From a virus: 48,617 bases of DNA. Position numbers and translations under genes: made by a program. Position 1 is the stretch's first letter. Each line of letters opens with the position of its first letter. Shown here in pieces: positions 35,452 through 48,442 of this stretch. The notes below the pieces were generated by a model. That model was not told the origin of the DNA, ran no database searches, and was given only the letters and a program-made list of their open reading frames with translations. The stretch lies in the UHGV virus genome UHGV-1497260; one strand, given 5' to 3'.

Positions 35452-36453
35452 TTGGCACAAGCACAATATTATACATTACTTACGGAAATAGGCAAAGCGG
35501 CTATAGCAAACGCTACAGCACTTGGAACTAGAGTGGATTTTGCAAAAATAAAAGTTGGGGATGGTGGTGGAAGTGCATATATTCCAACAGAAACTCAAAC
35601 AGAACTCAAAAATGTAGTGTGGGAAAGCACATTAGAGCATGTTCAAGCAGATGAAAAAAATCCTAATTGGGTAGTTATCCAAAAGACTATAACTGGAGAT
35701 ACTGGAAGCTTTACAATCAGAGAGGTTGGAGTATTTGACTCTAAAGACCAACTTCTCGCAATATCTAGCTATCCAGAAACTTATAAACCTGCTCCAGATT
35801 CGGGAACAGTAAAAGAAATATTAATTAAAATTATATTAGCTGTGTCTAATACAGCAAGTATAAATTTAAAAATAGACCCAACAGTTGTATTAGCAACTTT
35901 AAAAGACATACAGGACCTAGACTCTAAAATTGATACAACTAAAACAGAATTAACAAGCAACATAGAAACTGCTAAAACAGAGTTAAATACTAGAATTGAC
36001 ACAGAAAATGAGAAACAAAATATTAAAATTGACCAATTAATCGCAGGTGGTTCTAATGTGGCATCTACTCAAACAATAACAATTGACGATTGGGTTGAGG
36101 ATGCAGAAAATGGATTCAAAGCAACTGTAACACATAGTTTGTTAACACAGAGAATAGTTGTAAATATTATAGATGCTACTACAAAAGAAAATGTAGTTAC
36201 AAACTTTAAAATTATAGATGATAATTCTATAGAAATTAGAAGTGAAACAAGGTCAGAATTAAATGTTTATGTGATAAATGGAAATGCAGAAACTCGTTTT
36301 ATTAATGCAACTGTGGATGATAACAGAGTATCTGAAATGACTACTTATTCGTCTAAGAAAATCGAAGATAGATTGGTTAATATAGAAGAAAAATTGAGTG
36401 GAAATTTATCTGATATTGCAACAAGTGTAAATGAGTTGATAACTTATTGTTAG
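35452..36453 (+). CDS. tail fibre protein
   Basis: position after the baseplate genes; repetitive T/N-rich central region. Confidence 0.5.
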   Translation: MAQAQYYTLLTEIGKAAIANATALGTRVDFAKIKVGDGGGSAYIPTETQTELKNVVWESTLEHVQADEKNPNWVVIQKTITGDTGSFTIREVGVFDSKDQLLAISSYPETYKPAPDSGTVKEILIKIILAVSNTASINLKIDPTVVLATLKDIQDLDSKIDTTKTELTSNIETAKTELNTRIDTENEKQNIKIDQLIAGGSNVASTQTITIDDWVEDAENGFKATVTHSLLTQRIVVNIIDATTKENVVTNFKIIDDNSIEIRSETRSELNVYVINGNAETRFINATVDDNRVSEMTTYSSKKIEDRLVNIEEKLSGNLSDIATSVNELITYC

Positions 36454-42843: not shown

Positions 42844-43749
42844 TTATTTCATCATTTTTTTGTATCCTTTTGCATTTGCAAAAACATGTTTATCTACATC
42901 ACTCATAACTATTATGCCAGGTATATTCTTTTTAAATGCTTCACCTAACAATTTAGCACCTCCACCCATAACAACAACCGCAGCTGTACTAACTGGATAA
43001 TTTAATTTCAATTCATTGTATATTTCTTTAAATAGAGAAATAGATGCATCTATATTTTTCTTTATATCTTGTTTTTCACCATTTAGGTAAAATCCTTTAT
43101 TTATGTAGTCTTGTATTTTTTCTCTTTTTATCTCAACTTTACCTAAAAATCTTTCGTCCATCTCAAGAGATTTCTTTATTGCATCATATATATTTATTGT
43201 TCCCACATTTATAGAATATGGATTAGTTGCTTTATTTCCTTGTACAAGTGCAATATCTGTTGTCTTTCCACCAATATCAACTAAAACAACATCTCTTCCT
43301 GCAACTTGGTCAACTATATCTTTTGCATAATATAAATAGCCTGTAACGCCCTCTGGGAACACTTGAACAGATCTTATTACTATATCTCTTTTAGTAGTTT
43401 CATTTCCTTTTGCAAATTCAACATGATATTCTTTTCCTTGTAATTTTTCAATCAAATCTTTTCTTAATCCTCCAAATTGCTTCACTGGTAGACCTAATGC
43501 TAGATCAATAACTTCATCATCTGTATTTCTGCATATAGCCCCAAGTAAAAGCGGTAAGAAGTTTTCTTTCTCATATTTAACTATATTTATTTCTTCGTCA
43601 CCTTCGCCTAAATAATATGTTTTATTACCTATTTTAATGCTATCTGAATCTGAACCAAAGTTTTTTACCTCTGTAACTTTACTTTCAAAAATATCATCTG
43701 TACTTGTTTTAACTGCATAATTTCCAATATCTATACCTAATTTACTCAT
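42844..43749 (-). CDS. parM: ParM/Alp-family actin-like segregation ATPase
   Basis: N-terminal MSKLGIDIGNYAVK phosphate-1 motif; actin-fold motifs DIGGKTTD and VVMGGGA; paired with a small upstream gene. Confidence 0.75.
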   Translation of the reverse strand: MSKLGIDIGNYAVKTSTDDIFESKVTEVKNFGSDSDSIKIGNKTYYLGEGDEEINIVKYEKENFLPLLLGAICRNTDDEVIDLALGLPVKQFGGLRKDLIEKLQGKEYHVEFAKGNETTKRDIVIRSVQVFPEGVTGYLYYAKDIVDQVAGRDVVLVDIGGKTTDIALVQGNKATNPYSINVGTINIYDAIKKSLEMDERFLGKVEIKREKIQDYINKGFYLNGEKQDIKKNIDASISLFKEIYNELKLNYPVSTAAVVVMGGGAKLLGEAFKKNIPGIIVMSDVDKHVFANAKGYKKMMK

Positions 43750-43768: not shown

Positions 43769-43972
43769 TTATTCTAAACTTCCAAAATCAAAATTGTTAG
43801 CTGGATCTTCTATTTCTTTTTTCTGTTCAACTACAGCATTATCCTTTTTTTCATTCATTTTTTCCCAAACAAGCTCTTTTAAATAAGCCGTAGCTGATAA
43901 TTTCTCATCTAAAAACTTTTCAATTGCTTTTTCTTTATCATTGTTTTTAAATGTTAGAACTATCCTACTCAT
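43769..43972 (-). CDS. parR: ParR-like centromere-binding adaptor (ribbon-helix-helix-like N-terminus)
   Basis: 67 aa, directly upstream of parM and directly downstream of an AT-rich repeat region. Confidence 0.5.
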   Translation of the reverse strand: MSRIVLTFKNNDKEKAIEKFLDEKLSATAYLKELVWEKMNEKKDNAVVEQKKEIEDPANNFDFGSLE

Positions 43973-44220: not shown

Positions 44221-44679
44221 TTATCTAATTGTAAAAGAAGCTTCAGCTGGACTAGAGAATAATATAATACCTCCTGTACAAACACCTTTTCCTTTAAATT
44301 TAGCAATATATGAACCCTTTTTTAGCCCTTTGAAACTTACTACACCAGTTTTAGTAGTTCCAGCTAATCTAAAACTTACAAATTGAGATGATACAATTTT
44401 GCCAGCCTTATATACATCTATATTTCCTTCAAATCCTAAAATATTTCCAAGCGTAGATGTTACTCTCCAAGATAACTGCCCACCACTCATTGCAGTTAAA
44501 TTAGCAGTACCACCTGGAACAACAACAGATTTAGTCGAAGGCGAATCTGAGTTTGGTTGGCCAATTAATTCAACTGTTTGTGAATTTCCAGTACCTTCAT
44601 AATCATTTCCATCAGCAAAAGCTGTAAATGGAATCATTACTGCACAAAGCGTTAGTAATAAAGCAATTGTTTTTTTCAT
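44221..44679 (-). CDS. secreted protein (signal peptide MKKTIALLLTLCAVMIPFTAFA), unknown function; cargo
   Basis: canonical Sec signal peptide; Gly/Ser/Thr-rich beta-type mature region. Confidence 0.6.
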   Translation of the reverse strand: MKKTIALLLTLCAVMIPFTAFADGNDYEGTGNSQTVELIGQPNSDSPSTKSVVVPGGTANLTAMSGGQLSWRVTSTLGNILGFEGNIDVYKAGKIVSSQFVSFRLAGTTKTGVVSFKGLKKGSYIAKFKGKGVCTGGIILFSSPAEASFTIR

Positions 44680-44713: not shown

Positions 44714-45052
44714 TTACAGTTTCCTTTCTTTACGTGCCTTAATAATCATATTGTAATTATACTCAGCAGTTTCAAATGCTCCTACCAAAGGAGTTATAAT
44801 TACACTTTCTATTAAGCACAATTCATCATAGTTTAAACTAGCTTCTCCAGCATAGAAATTATTTAACTTATCTAAATCTATTCTAGTTAAAACGGAAACT
44901 GATTCCATTGAGAATTTGTAAACATCAATAAGTTTATATAATCCACCTATATAGTTTTTTGCTACTTCATGGCTCTTAAAAAATTCATCTTTTCCTGTAT
45001 GTAAATTTACTTCCATAATTCCCTCCATTGTTCTTATATTTTCAACCTTCAA
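44714..45052 (-). CDS. hypothetical cytoplasmic protein upstream of the secreted protein gene
   Basis: ORF; start may be the internal MEGIMEV/MEV. Confidence 0.4.
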   Translation of the reverse strand: MKVENIRTMEGIMEVNLHTGKDEFFKSHEVAKNYIGGLYKLIDVYKFSMESVSVLTRIDLDKLNNFYAGEASLNYDELCLIESVIITPLVGAFETAEYNYNMIIKARKERKL

Positions 45053-45072: not shown

Positions 45073-45131
45073 AAAACAGAATATTCTATCACGGTAGAAT
45101 ATTCTGTTTTTTTCATTCTATCATGATAGAA
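45073..45131. promoter_or_regulatory. two palindromes in the promoter region: AAAACAGAATATTCTA-6-TAGAATATTCTGTTTT and TTCTATCATGATAGAA
   Basis: sequence reading. Confidence 0.55.
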
Positions 45132-45381
45132 TAATATTTTCAATCATTTTTTAAATTATATTCTATTTAAATAAAATATAATATAAAAAAGAACACTTAA
45201 TATTTTTCAAGCTAATATATTAAGTGTTCTTTTTTATATTTTTACAAAATTATATAAAATTATTCTTTAATCAATTAAAGTGTTTTTCTATTTCTTAATA
45301 ATAAGAAATGATATAAAATTGTATCATTTTAAAGATTTTGTGATATAATAAAAGCAAGAAGAACTACAATCTATTTAGGCG

Positions 45382-45396
45382 TAGAGTGGAGTTCAT
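45382..45396. repeat. left copy of a 15-bp inverted repeat TAGAGTGGAGTTCAT flanking the toxin locus (partner at 45607-45621)
   Basis: perfect 15-mer reverse complement. Confidence 0.8.
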
Positions 45397-45408
45397 AATA
45401 AACATAGT

Positions 45409-45561
45409 TTATTTTTTGAATTTAAATATAAATTTAAATTCAACCTGTAAGTCACTCTTTGCACGAGAGTGGCTTTTTGCTTTTTTGAATAGTTTACTGA
45501 TTAAGTAAACTACCACGCTAGCTGTTAAACTAGCTAAAACATTAAACAAAAAGTTATCCAT
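45409..45561 (-). CDS. type I toxin-like membrane peptide (50 aa: MDNFLFNVLASLTASVVVYLISKLFKKAKSHSRAKSDLQVEFKFIFKFKK)
   Basis: translated by hand from the reverse complement; N-terminal transmembrane helix plus Lys-rich tail; GAGGGGAGGTGA ribosome-binding site sequestered by an upstream CCTCCC hairpin. Confidence 0.6.
   Translation of the reverse strand: MDNFLFNVLASLTASVVVYLISKLFKKAKSHSRAKSDLQVEFKFIFKFKK
45451..45487 (+). terminator. intrinsic terminator on the plus strand inside and antisense to the toxin ORF; candidate 3-prime end of an antitoxin sRNA
   Basis: GTCACTCT-ttgcacg-AGAGTGGC followed by TTTTTGCTTTTTTG. Confidence 0.55.
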
Positions 45562-45606
45562 GTAACTCACCTCCCCTCGAATCGTTGGGAGGATAATCTT
45601 TTGTAC

Positions 45607-45621
45607 ATGAACTCCACTCTA
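45607..45621. repeat. right copy ATGAACTCCACTCTA of the toxin-flanking inverted repeat
   Basis: perfect 15-mer reverse complement. Confidence 0.8.
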
Positions 45622-45680
45622 TAGATTGTATATTACGCTCTTCTTGCTAGATTTAATTATACCATATTTTGCAATATCAG

Positions 45681-46415
45681 TTAAGAATTTGCATTACAAT
45701 AATCAGAAAGCTTGTCCCACTCACAATCAACCCCTATTATTTTAAGAATATCATTGACTTGGCTATTTAAATCTTTAATATCTGATTTAGACATTAAAGG
45801 ATCTTTCATTATTTCATTTAGAAAAATACTATCAATGATTAAACATACATTTTCTGATATATATTCACGTTTTACTGAGATTGCTGTTCCAACTACACTT
45901 TCTTTTAATGTCTTGTATGCTACACTCATTATACATGGTTCTAACTCAATTCCTTCTAGTGTTATTTCAAAAGAATATCTTATTTTTATATTTTCATTTC
46001 CAATAAATATTTCTTCATTGCTGCTTATCTTCTTTAATTTTCTCATTATGCCTAACATCTTAGCATTCACTTCATAATTTATTCCATATCTCTTTGATGC
46101 CAAACTCGACATTAAGTCTCTTTCTAAATAAATTACCCACTGACCATTATAGGAAAATGATGTTTTAGCGATATCCATTTCTCCTTTTCCAGTAATATTA
46201 AATTTAGGCTCTAGTTTATTTATTAAGTAAATCTCATAAAAATCCATAGTATATTTATTATCTAATTCCATATACTCAAGTCTTAAATTCTTATTACACC
46301 AATTTTCTTTTTTATTACTTAAATGACTAGCGTGTCTATCACAGATATTCTCTGTTTTCCCAACGTATAAACATTCTTCCGTATCTTGATTAATATATTT
46401 ATAAACATAATACAT
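45681..46415 (-). CDS. GIY-YIG nuclease-domain protein, copy 2
   Basis: N-terminal YVYKYI...LYVGKTEN...RH..H...FYEIYLINKLEPKFN carries the GIY, YIG, Arg and Glu motifs; divergent C-terminus. Confidence 0.75.
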   Translation of the reverse strand: MYYVYKYINQDTEECLYVGKTENICDRHASHLSNKKENWCNKNLRLEYMELDNKYTMDFYEIYLINKLEPKFNITGKGEMDIAKTSFSYNGQWVIYLERDLMSSLASKRYGINYEVNAKMLGIMRKLKKISSNEEIFIGNENIKIRYSFEITLEGIELEPCIMSVAYKTLKESVVGTAISVKREYISENVCLIIDSIFLNEIMKDPLMSKSDIKDLNSQVNDILKIIGVDCEWDKLSDYCNANS

Positions 46416-46434: not shown

Positions 46435-47235
46435 TTAATTGTCATATTTACAGCCCTTATATATTTCAAATAATTCTTGCCATGTATATCCAACTTCTAG
46501 TATGTGAAAAATATCCTCTATTTGTTGGAAAATCTCAGTAATTTTATATTCAAATGTTGGCATTAATTCCATTAAATTAGCCAAAGATCCAATCCTAATC
46601 TCTAATGTTATATTTATAAGTATTTTTTTATTTGTTGCTGTATATTCTTTCCATCTGGGATAAACTGAAATCAAAGAACAACTTCCAAATCTTTCTAATG
46701 TTTCAAAATCATATGATATCAAATTAATATCTAATTCATTCTCACAAAATTCTATATCCATATTTTCAAAGTTATATAGCACACTTAAAACATTATTTTC
46801 ATATAACATTTCAACCTTGGCATCTAACTTTTCAATTCTCTTTAAAAAATTAATAGATTTTTTACTTACTTCATATTTCATATCTATCTTTCTTTCTCTG
46901 AATCTTCTTTTTCCCTTTGTCTTTTCCTTAAAATCTTCTTCTGAATATGTACTCCAATCTTCTTCCTTGTAATCAAAAAAGATGTGTTCAGTATCCATAT
47001 CACCTTTACTTAGTTTATTAAATATTGGATTTAGTTCATTTATTAAATAAACTTCAAAAAAATCCATATTATATCTACGTGGAAGTTCAATATATTTTAA
47101 TATTAATTCTTTAGTACACCAATCTTCTTCTTTATTACTCAAATGAGATGAATGCCTTGCATATATATCTTCTGTTTTTCCAACGTATAAACATTCTTCT
47201 GTAGCTGGATCAATATATTTATAAACATAATACAT
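46435..47235 (-). CDS. GIY-YIG nuclease-domain protein, copy 1
   Basis: same motifs (YVYKYI, LYVGKTED, FEVYLINELNPIFN); first ~100 nt and the ribosome-binding-site region nearly identical to copy 2. Confidence 0.75.
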   Translation of the reverse strand: MYYVYKYIDPATEECLYVGKTEDIYARHSSHLSNKEEDWCTKELILKYIELPRRYNMDFFEVYLINELNPIFNKLSKGDMDTEHIFFDYKEEDWSTYSEEDFKEKTKGKRRFRERKIDMKYEVSKKSINFLKRIEKLDAKVEMLYENNVLSVLYNFENMDIEFCENELDINLISYDFETLERFGSCSLISVYPRWKEYTATNKKILINITLEIRIGSLANLMELMPTFEYKITEIFQQIEDIFHILEVGYTWQELFEIYKGCKYDN

Positions 47236-47254: not shown

Positions 47255-48442
47255 TTATTTATAGTAATATCCTTCTTCATTTACTATACCTTGATCAAAT
47301 AAATTTCTCCTAACAGTTTCAAGTCTGACAGGATCTTTGCTATAATCAACTTCTCTTTCTTCTTTTTTAACATCTTCATCATCCCAATATTTATCTAATT
47401 CTTCTTTAAACTTTAAATCATCTTTTTGATGAATTATAACTTCACTTATTTTATTTGAAAGTGTTGATTTAAAAAAATCATAATTCTTTGTATTTATAAT
47501 ATCAGTATTATCTCTTTCAAATGCTATAGCAATAGACTTATTAAAAGCATTCAGATAAACATCTTTCTTAAAATCAAACTCTTTAAAATCTTCTTTAAAT
47601 AGTTTAATCGTCCCTGTTGTAAAAATATTTTCATTTGGTATATAAAAACTAAAAGACACTTCATTGTCCTGCTTCTTTTTAGGTATATAATCTTCAACCA
47701 ATATATCTTTATCAAAATATTTTCTAGGTTCATAATCTATCACAGAAAAAATTATTTCATCTATTTTTCTATTTTTTCTTTTTTCTTCTTTTATTGAAAC
47801 AACCATGTTGCCTTTTTTATTTATTTCATTCATTGCTCTTTTTAGAACATTTTGTTTAAAATATTTATACTCTGGATATACATTATCTTTTAATTTCAAA
47901 TAAAATCTTAATTCATCTAACTTATATTTTATCTCCACTTCCTTATTTTCTCTGCTCCATAGTCTAAATAAAGTGTATAACCTCTGAGTATATGCACCTC
48001 TAAAATTAAATAACACTGATAAATTAATAGCTGTATATCCATTTTTCTTTTTCTGCATTTTTACAAAATCAGTTATATGATTGTATAGAACTTCATGCAT
48101 CATAATTGTATAAATTTGGTCTGTATGATCCAATTCATATGTATTAATTAAACCACTTCCAAAAGTTTTTAACTTGCCAGTTGTCTCTTCTATATAGTCA
48201 AATTCCAAAACACTTTGTTGAAACATGTTCAAAATTTCTTTTATATTTTTATGCTCATAATCATTATTGTTTTTCATAAATACTTTTAGTTCTTCTTTTG
48301 ATATAGTTGTAACATAAGATGAATTTTGCTGTTTCTGAGCATTAAAAAGTATTTTGTAAAATAATTTATTTTCCACATTTGTAAAATCATATTTACTTTT
48401 TATTAAATTATTTGGTTGCATTAAAATTTCTTTTTTTTCCAA
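47255..48442 (-). CDS. plasmid replication initiator, Rep_3-like (iteron-binding)
   Basis: N-terminal segment NNLIKSKYDFTNVENKLFYKILFNAQ resembles the Rep_3 family signature; gene abuts the iteron array. Confidence 0.65.
   Translation of the reverse strand: MEKKEILMQPNNLIKSKYDFTNVENKLFYKILFNAQKQQNSSYVTTISKEELKVFMKNNNDYEHKNIKEILNMFQQSVLEFDYIEETTGKLKTFGSGLINTYELDHTDQIYTIMMHEVLYNHITDFVKMQKKKNGYTAINLSVLFNFRGAYTQRLYTLFRLWSRENKEVEIKYKLDELRFYLKLKDNVYPEYKYFKQNVLKRAMNEINKKGNMVVSIKEEKRKNRKIDEIIFSVIDYEPRKYFDKDILVEDYIPKKKQDNEVSFSFYIPNENIFTTGTIKLFKEDFKEFDFKKDVYLNAFNKSIAIAFERDNTDIINTKNYDFFKSTLSNKISEVIIHQKDDLKFKEELDKYWDDEDVKKEEREVDYSKDPVRLETVRRNLFDQGIVNEEGYYYK

Follow-up and report, generated by a model that had tools for sequence, protein, structure and literature searches.

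A predicted Clostridioides difficile-family type I toxin-antitoxin module on a phage-plasmid, with a covarying mRNA closing helix and a tentative start-codon switch

Introduction

What is the small locus that lies between the partition and replication genes of the virus genome UHGV-1497260, and what does the long inverted repeat at its two ends do? The window analyzed here (the whole stretch of DNA, 48,617 nucleotides [nt]) carries on its minus strand, at 45561-45409, an open reading frame (ORF) for a peptide of 50 amino acids (aa), which a first-pass annotation had read as the toxin of a “hok-like” type I toxin-antitoxin (TA) system: a membrane peptide made from an mRNA with a sequestered ribosome-binding site (RBS) and long-range pairing of its ends, countered by a cis-antisense RNA and serving plasmid addiction. 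Family membership and homology support this reading of the locus as a type I TA system, and they also tell us which family is concerned. We put at about 0.85 the probability that the locus is a complete TA module of the C. difficile type I family (a CD_typeI_toxin peptide with an RCd-type antisense RNA) placed in the par-rep interval of a phage-plasmid. The family, its occurrence on C. difficile plasmids and the name of the protein are all public already and thus known; the structure of the toxin mRNA, and what the antisense RNA may do to it, take up the larger part of this paper.

Results

The toxin and its family

The ORF is present as had been claimed and encodes MDNFLFNVLASLTASVVVYLISKLFKKAKSHSRAKSDLQVEFKFIFKFKK, a peptide whose N-terminus forms a hydrophobic helix and whose tail is rich in Lys. 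Its ATG at 45561 stands 8 nt downstream of a Shine-Dalgarno (SD) sequence and is also the start annotated in the plasmid pCDBI1; an alternative GTG start at 45570, given by a mechanical ORF list, was dismissed, as that codon lies inside the SD sequence. The NCBI curated equivalog model NF047374 (“CD_typeI_toxin”) gives the peptide 72.5 bits (cutoff 60), with residues 1-50 aligned to positions 1-51 of the model's 51; PHROG 738 is matched at E = 1e-25, and UniRef and NCBI proteins 96-98% identical to the toxin bear the name “type I toxin-antitoxin system toxin.” Recognition comes from NCBIfam and PHROGs only, a Pfam search of the 50-aa peptide having returned no family at E ≤ 0.1, Hok/Gef included. 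The toxin is 48% and 53% identical to two studied types, the CD0977.1 type and the CD0956.2 type, with the motifs MDNFL..VLASL..KSHS..KFKK conserved, and it has all that defines a C. difficile type I toxin: a length within 30-56 aa, a hydrophobic N-terminus, a Lys-rich C-terminus and a match to the curated model.

The first-pass annotation had pointed to the described C. difficile type I toxins for comparison, and the locus proves to be a plain member of their family, by NF047374 as well as by homology to mapped loci. The whole module of ~330 base pairs (bp) is homologous at the DNA level, with 70-78% identity, to loci in 59 C. difficile phage and 50 plasmid records, three Paraclostridium (P. 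sordellii) plasmids among them. Two of these loci carry the exact CD0977.1 and RCd11 primers and one carries the exact 3' part of RCd10, the RCd10, RCd11 and CD0977.1 loci having been anchored via the primer and RNA sequences in the supplement of Peltier 2020 (PMC7699646); the 5' part of RCd10 as printed found no locus within 4 mismatches, probably owing to alignment gaps in the text. The homologous loci also include phiCD38-2 gp33, which has been named as a TA (PMC7699646), and plasmids of both C. difficile and P. sordellii had been reported before to bear homologues of the toxin (PMC7699646).

When window positions 45330-45690 are set against loci L002-L051, the module appears as a ~330-bp cassette, in which conservation begins and ends at two −10 boxes and the flanks are unrelated. 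Some copies are no longer whole. Locus L034 (IMGVR_UViG_2879510609_000012, ~601-740; protein P0011) is broken after about toxin codon 33, beyond which the sequence is unrelated, and is a decayed or recombined module. Another copy, L067 in phage phiCD119 (15734-16447), has a GTG start, a frameshift and a 39-aa product, so that it is either a pseudogene or a short toxin variant such as has been described for CD0904.1 and CD0956.3; the same phage has a second, intact module of CD0977.1 type (L071).

Predicted transcripts

The ends of both transcripts are predicted from promoter and terminator motifs together with homology. The toxin promoter, of sigma-A type (minus strand, 45684-45656), consists of the −35 box TTAACT (45684-45679), a 17-nt spacer and the extended −10 box TGGTATAAT (45664-45656), the last of which the first-pass annotation had noticed upstream of the toxin; in a consensus scan the promoter has 10 of 12 matches plus the TG motif, and its −10 box, kept in all aligned homologues, is the sharp left border of the module. 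Transcription from a start predicted at 45649/45648 would yield an mRNA of ~300 nt (45649-45345, minus strand) with a 5' untranslated region (UTR) of 87-88 nt. In 28 homologues that we compared throughout, the predicted mRNAs measure 276-313 nt and their 5'UTRs 78-94 nt, and the mapped toxin mRNAs of homologues measure 282-306 nt with UTRs of 83-88 nt (PMC5961336; PMC7699646, supplement). The predicted transcript has the form that characterizes the family, namely a structured mRNA of ~280-310 nt with a 5'UTR of ~83-88 nt and a sequestered RBS.

This sequestration is local. The SD sequence GGGGAGG (45576-45570, minus strand), 8 nt upstream of the ATG, is preceded across an 11-nt spacer by the anti-SD sequence CCUCCC (45592-45587, minus strand), and the hairpin that had been proposed to hide the SD is indeed found, with CCUCCC paired to GGGAGG in both the minimum free energy (MFE) and the centroid folds. 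In all homologues the SD is likewise predicted to be paired, and each of them has an anti-SD stretch just upstream, across a short loop and in a register that shifts from one homologue to the next; for the window's mRNA the probability of an unpaired SD is 0.00. The fold of the full transcript (305 nt), a check that had been suggested earlier, comes to −106.4 kcal/mol against −56.1 ± 4.1 for shuffled sequences (z = −12.3), and the SD hairpin and a helix that closes the two ends of the mRNA appear in its MFE and centroid structures alike. At the 3' end a local hairpin of modest size (45394-45361, minus strand) followed by a U-rich tail (45360-45345) is probably the toxin terminator, because in the CD0977.1 homologue the 3' end mapped by rapid amplification of cDNA ends (RACE) comes directly after the equivalent hairpin and U7.

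On the plus strand we read from the sequence a promoter that was absent from the first-pass annotation (45341-45349), with the extended −10 box TGATATAAT and a weak −35; it lies in the 3' flank of the toxin, at a suitable distance to start the predicted antisense RNA. This −10 box is kept as TGTG[AG]TATAAT in 26 of the 28 homologues, is the sharp right border of the module and falls, with 1 mismatch, within the published RCd14 promoter-fragment primer JP663. The predicted antitoxin RNA of ~130 nt (45353-45487, plus strand, with a start between 45353 and 45357) would be fully complementary to the toxin 3'UTR and the last 113 nt of the ORF, covering the 3' half of the mRNA; its predicted fold has −39.0 kcal/mol (z = −5.7). 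The RACE-mapped RNAs of RCd11 and RCd10 type can be aligned with it from one end to the other, start and end at similar places, and have in common with it a 5' block, AGCAAGAAGAACUACAAUCUAU..UAGAGUG, and a 3' terminator block, GAGUGGCUUUUU; the middles of the three differ, which agrees with the published neutralization by cognate antitoxins only. Because of the inverted repeat, the first ~45 nt of the antitoxin are a near-copy of the toxin 5' arm.

A clean plus-strand terminator inside the ORF had been claimed at 45451-45487. We find it with a stem of 11 pairs at 45449-45475 and a T-run to 45485 (45449-45485 in all), and a terminator scan lists 2 terminator-like sites in 1.9 kb where 0.2 are expected. 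Among the homologues this stem has undergone compensatory changes (G-C to A-U in 6 sequences), and all 19 of its non-Watson-Crick cells read A·C on the toxin strand and hence G·U on the antitoxin strand, against 0 of the opposite kind; wobbles that are solely plus-strand G·U argue that the terminator hairpin is maintained for a plus-strand RNA. What is predicted here is the arrangement typical of the family, a convergent antisense RNA of ~130-150 nt with its own sigma-A promoter and a terminator inside the ORF. Rfam, searched at gathering thresholds over the whole window on both strands, gave no match, which points to the lack of a curated RNA family for RCd-type antitoxins. The last toxin codons (EFKFIFKFKK) further contain an AT-only 12-bp perfect palindrome (45416-45443), which would form a hairpin in toxin mRNA and antitoxin and may be a candidate site of loop-loop contact between the two.

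The closing helix

The perfect 15-bp inverted repeat (45382-45396 and 45607-45621) that had been proposed to pair the two UTRs exists, and it is the core of a longer pairing. Two more perfect blocks of 10 bp (45365-45374 with 45621-45630, and 45353-45362 with 45639-45648) extend it to ~35 bp in three helices, in which the first ~42 nt of the predicted mRNA pair with its last ~44 nt. The 5' arm occupies 45648-45607 (minus strand; H1 45648-45637, H2 45630-45622, H3 45621-45607) and the 3' arm of this long-range pairing 45396-45353 (minus strand). By itself the 15-nt repeat would only be suggestive, because 4 of 200 dinucleotide shuffles of the AT-rich 500 bp contain a perfect repeat of at least 15 nt. 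The 5'UTR/3'UTR duplex as a whole, at −55.9 kcal/mol, stands against −20.9 ± 3.2 for shuffled sequences (z = −10.8). Absence of the repeat and of the SD hairpin from homologous loci, which the first-pass annotation had named as evidence to the contrary, is not what we see: the duplex (z −3.8 to −12.6) and the anti-SD are found in all 28, and the duplex is part of every MFE structure, with 14-40 bp.

Comparison of the homologues speaks for the helix in other ways as well. RNAalifold independently recovers the two inner helices. Of the cells in the structure as named above, 89% pair, a share that drops to 43-49% once the partners are slid; 15 pairs are changed on both sides, a number reached by 0 of 500 shuffles, and there are 49 doubly changed cells against 15 in shuffles, although such counts of covarying cells overstate the number of independent events, the sequences being related. 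H2 is paired in 97% of cells, with 5 of its 8 pairs compensated, and H3 in 93%. When read on the toxin strand, the wobbles amount to 18 G·U against 3 A·C in H2 and to 18 against 0 in the core of H3, and this preponderance of toxin-strand G·U among the arm changes argues for selection on the toxin RNA and not on a DNA repeat. Other arm sequences, again complementary, are found in the P. sordellii copy and the phiCD38-2 group. For H1 the column counts (81% paired, 13:13 G·U to A·C) are confounded by an indel in the phiCD38-2 group and are hence uninformative; the H1 strands of that group, GCAAGAGAA/TTCTCTTGC, are perfectly complementary but offset. The non-coding arms are also better conserved than the ORF. 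On this comparative evidence the 5'/3' complementarity is real, and the closing helix is backed by covariation across the family.

The start-codon lock

The distal part of the 5' arm, GUUCAUGUA (45612-45604, minus strand), contains an anti-start CAU and has two alternative partners, the 3' arm and the start-codon region UACAUGGAU (45564-45556, minus strand). In predicted folds of the leader alone, or of the mRNA with its 3' half removed as if bound by antitoxin, GUUCAUGUA pairs with UACAUGGAU in a 9-bp helix (the “AUG lock”), which in these nascent and 5'-half folds would bury the start codon on top of the SD hairpin. An equivalent lock of 8-10 bp is predicted in 28 of 28 homologues, and its compensatory changes track codon 2 and the nucleotides in front of the AUG; the mean energy is −10.6 kcal/mol for cognate pairs and −7.9 for non-cognate ones, a cognate mean reached in 0 of 20000 permutations. 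In a small alignment of the 19 distinct homologues, itself anchored using the predicted duplexes, 95% of the lock cells are paired, a share that falls to 22-47% once the partners are slid, and double changes number 15, whereas shuffles give 4.8.

The lock and H3 share seven nucleotides, so that the two helices compete. For the window's mRNA, folding predicts an unpaired AUG with a probability of 0.43 in the full-length molecule and of 0.00 in the leader or the 5' half. The corresponding means over the homologues are 0.29 (full-length) and 0.02 (5' half), with the full-length AUG more open in 20 of the 28 and less open in 0.

Host element and gene neighborhood

pCDBI1 and a dozen further C. difficile plasmids of 42-48 kb match the region at 98% identity, and by this sequence identity the window is a C. 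difficile phage-plasmid of the pCDBI1/pDLL3026 family (PMC12291638). Genes of pCDBI1 include those for a myovirus head, tail, baseplate and lysis, for ParM and a Rep3-type initiator, and for a DnaB-like helicase, SSB, a sigma factor and a tyrosine recombinase; the toxin ORF is labeled “hypothetical protein” in its record. As a module on a pCDBI1-type phage-plasmid, the locus has the kind of location seen in the family, whose members lie on prophages or plasmids or near CRISPR arrays in C. difficile or its relatives. The placement between partition and replication genes given by the first-pass annotation is correct, with a ParM-like gene (42844-43749) on one flank of the TA region and a Rep3-type initiator (47255-48442) on the other.

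Between the module and the rep gene stand two tandem paralogues for GIY-YIG nucleases (45681-46415 and 46435-47235, minus strand), whose products are similar over the N-terminal ~75 aa and unrelated in their C-terminal parts; the toxin −35 box and the stop codon of the first gene overlap. On the other side, a plus-strand terminator-like hairpin with a 17-bp stem (45073-45110), among neighboring genes on the minus strand, may terminate transcription in both directions and so separate the TA module from an HTH-like (helix-turn-helix) gene at 44714-45052. Farther off, a 152-aa protein (44221-44679, minus strand) has a signal-peptide-like N-terminus and no family match, and a 67-aa ORF (43769-43972, minus strand) lies just upstream of parM, where a ParR-like adaptor would sit. 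No second TA module was found in the window by arm motifs, tblastn or self-blastn, an arm-motif match at 35529-35541 being dismissed as a chance match.

Discussion

Since the locus so closely follows a studied family, its function can be approached through its relatives. Homologous peptides insert into the membrane and arrest growth, and the cognate antisense RNA neutralizes them in cis or trans, the duplex being cleaved by RNase III (PMC5961336, PMC7699646). The CD0977.1 mRNA is stable (~89 min) and RCd11 unstable (~8 min), and four family modules stabilized an unstable plasmid and an episomal prophage (PMC7699646). By analogy, the module of the window is most likely a post-segregational killing system for its phage-plasmid: plasmid-free cells would lose the unstable antisense RNA first, translate the stable toxin mRNA and stop growing. 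The predicted closed 5'/3' fold is compatible with a stable mRNA of this kind.

The described C. difficile systems (CD2517.1-RCd8, CD2907.1-RCd9, CD0956.2-RCd10 and CD0977.1-RCd11; Maikova 2018, PMC5961336; Peltier 2020, PMC7699646) have the same toxin architecture and likewise convergent transcripts, an antisense RNA over the 3' part of the toxin gene, a sequestered RBS and a place on a mobile element. The sizes match too (mRNA ~300 nt, 5'UTR ~88 nt, antitoxin ~130 nt), and the end blocks of the antitoxin are conserved. The copy in the window differs in that it sits on a pCDBI1-family phage-plasmid and not on a chromosomal prophage or next to a CRISPR array, and in that its antitoxin is without the upstream cyclic di-GMP (c-di-GMP) riboswitch of RCd11 and RCd12; none of these differences is essential.

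The two helices of the leader raise a further possibility, which we offer tentatively and regard as somewhat doubtful: much of the family may use a three-state switch, in which GUUCAU lies first on the start codon, then on an AUGAAC look-alike in the 3' arm, and then on the start codon again. While transcription is under way the leader would form a single long hairpin, with SD and AUG both concealed in it. Synthesis of the 3' arm would then give the 5' arm a new partner, and its move there would close and stabilize the mRNA and free the AUG. The antitoxin, whose 5' end copies the 5' arm, would then occupy the 3' arm, and the displaced 5' arm would re-lock the AUG while RNase III degrades the toxin/antitoxin duplex. 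It is the competition of lock and closing helix in 20 of the 28 homologues that suggests an antitoxin-driven switch. If true, the switch would explain how an antisense RNA that binds the 3' half only can block initiation ~200 nt away, and why conservation within the module is highest in the arms. In the texts consulted on the C. difficile family, its supplementary structure drawings (Mfold) having been unseen by us, we found no explicit description of the closing helix or the start-codon lock; published family texts say just “highly structured, RBS sequestered,” and general reviews treat 5'-3' long-distance interactions as a common theme in type I toxin mRNAs.

Similar elements are combined otherwise in better-known systems. 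With hok/Sok of R1 (general knowledge; PMC9841398) the module has in common plasmid addiction, a stable mRNA closed 5' to 3', an unstable antisense RNA and a membrane peptide. The two are, however, without sequence or domain homology, and Sok targets the mok initiation region on the 5' side whereas the antisense RNA of the window targets the 3' half; hok, moreover, becomes active when trimming of its 3' end sets the 5' end free, while release of the 5' arm in the window's mRNA is predicted to lock the start codon. The mechanism proposed here more closely resembles that of bsrG/SR4 than that of hok/Sok. For bsrG/SR4, Jahn and Brantl in 2013 reportedly found that the antisense RNA affects both decay (through RNase III) and translation, the latter via a structural change at the distant RBS. 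This Bacillus subtilis pair is likewise a Gram-positive type I TA on a prophage-like element, with an antisense RNA that overlaps the mRNA 3' end (cited in PMC5961336, PMC6563280). It differs in having no homology to the module, in which the predicted relay is a 5' arm that shuttles between 3' arm and AUG and is mimicked by the antitoxin. In aapA1/IsoA1 of Helicobacter pylori (PMC8167048) a 5'-3' long-distance interaction also restrains the full-length mRNA, and local hairpins also sequester the SD during transcription; there, however, it is the long-distance interaction that conceals the SD, the mRNA becomes active through 3' processing and IsoA1 pairs with the 5' region, whereas a local hairpin covers the SD of the window's mRNA in every predicted state.

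Several points weigh against our account of the module and, above all, against the switch. The function ascribed to the plasmid copy is carried over from homologues that are 48-53% identical in the toxin, and the antitoxin promoter has a poor −35 box, whose weakness is the reason that the consensus scan left this promoter unlisted. To the relatedness of the sequences and the way in which the lock alignment was anchored, both mentioned above, must be added that lock and closing helix do not compete in 8 of the 28 homologues (the phiCD38-2 group and the CD0977.1 type), so that the switch is not the universal mechanism. The SD is paired in every predicted conformer, and the model thus leaves the turning-on of translation unexplained. 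Finally, only a fraction of the CD0977.1 mRNA binds antitoxin in in vitro gel shifts (PMC7699646), and for this partial binding an antitoxin-resistant closed mRNA is no worse an explanation than displacement of the 5' arm.

Other explanations of the locus must be set against a C. difficile-family module. The one implied by the label “hok-like” is a true hok/Sok-family locus, with a Hok-type peptide, a Sok-like antisense RNA on the mok initiation region and 3' processing that frees fbi. The label was apt as to the fold-back, the 5' end of the mRNA pairing with its 3' end as in the hok fbi element, and as to a small membrane peptide encoded on a plasmid, but it goes no further: there is no Hok/Gef match in Pfam at E ≤ 0.1 and no Rfam family, hok/Sok included, on either strand; the antisense RNA lies on the 3' half of the ORF and the 3'UTR and not on the leader; the ORF list holds no overlapping mok-like frame; the published description of the family is one of no sequence homology to other type I toxins (PMC5961336, PMC6563280); and removal of the 3' arm is predicted to lock the AUG, not to open it. 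With neither a Hok/Gef peptide nor a Sok-type antisense and mok frame, and with the fold-back as an analogy, we reject membership in the hok/Sok family and give it a practically negligible probability. We also consider it quite unlikely that the inverted repeat acts at the DNA level, as the ends of a mobile cassette or as duplicated promoter-leader units, without a role in RNA. This explanation could draw on the sharp borders of the ~330-bp cassette exactly at the two −10 boxes, with unrelated flanks in different elements, and on a weaker repeat (45341-45358 with 45647-45664, 78% complementary) that holds both promoters. We reject it on the bias of the arm mismatches toward toxin-strand G·U in H2 and the H3 core and on the position of both arms inside the RACE-mapped transcripts of homologues; nor is a transposase or recombinase associated with the module, and the changed arm sequence of the P. 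sordellii copy, complementary all the same, likewise speaks against it.

A module that is only an inactive relic, its peptide unmade or non-toxic, has the precedent of the decayed copies described above (L034, broken after about codon 33, and the frameshifted L067 of phiCD119). In the window, however, no part is damaged, be it the ORF, the SD, either promoter, either terminator or any of the helices, the alignment to the hidden Markov model runs its full length, and many independent plasmids and viral contigs carry identical or almost identical elements; we therefore rejected the relic as very improbable. Better founded, although still rather unlikely, is a functional TA system whose main role is something other than maintenance, be it phage exclusion or abortive infection or the control of growth under stress or in biofilms, roles that are compatible with post-segregational killing. 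Members of the family are co-regulated with CRISPR-Cas by sigma-B and are induced in biofilms (PMC5961336, PMC7699646), and the phage-like replicon that hosts the module is already equipped for partition through ParM. Against this stand the four family modules that stabilize an unstable plasmid and an episomal prophage (PMC7699646), and the par-rep position and extrachromosomal lifestyle of the element also fit maintenance.

Surveys of C. difficile plasmids (PMC12291638, PMC6807378) call the pCDBI1/pDLL3026 replicon cryptic and leave a TA unmentioned. If the module is what it appears to be, these widespread “cryptic” phage-plasmids of C. difficile carry a type I TA of the C. difficile family, which would help to explain the stable persistence of the pCDBI1/pDLL3026 elements and would matter for attempts to cure them. 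For the family as a whole, the comparative RNA analysis provides a testable idea of how antitoxins that overlap the 3' end of their target may repress its translation.

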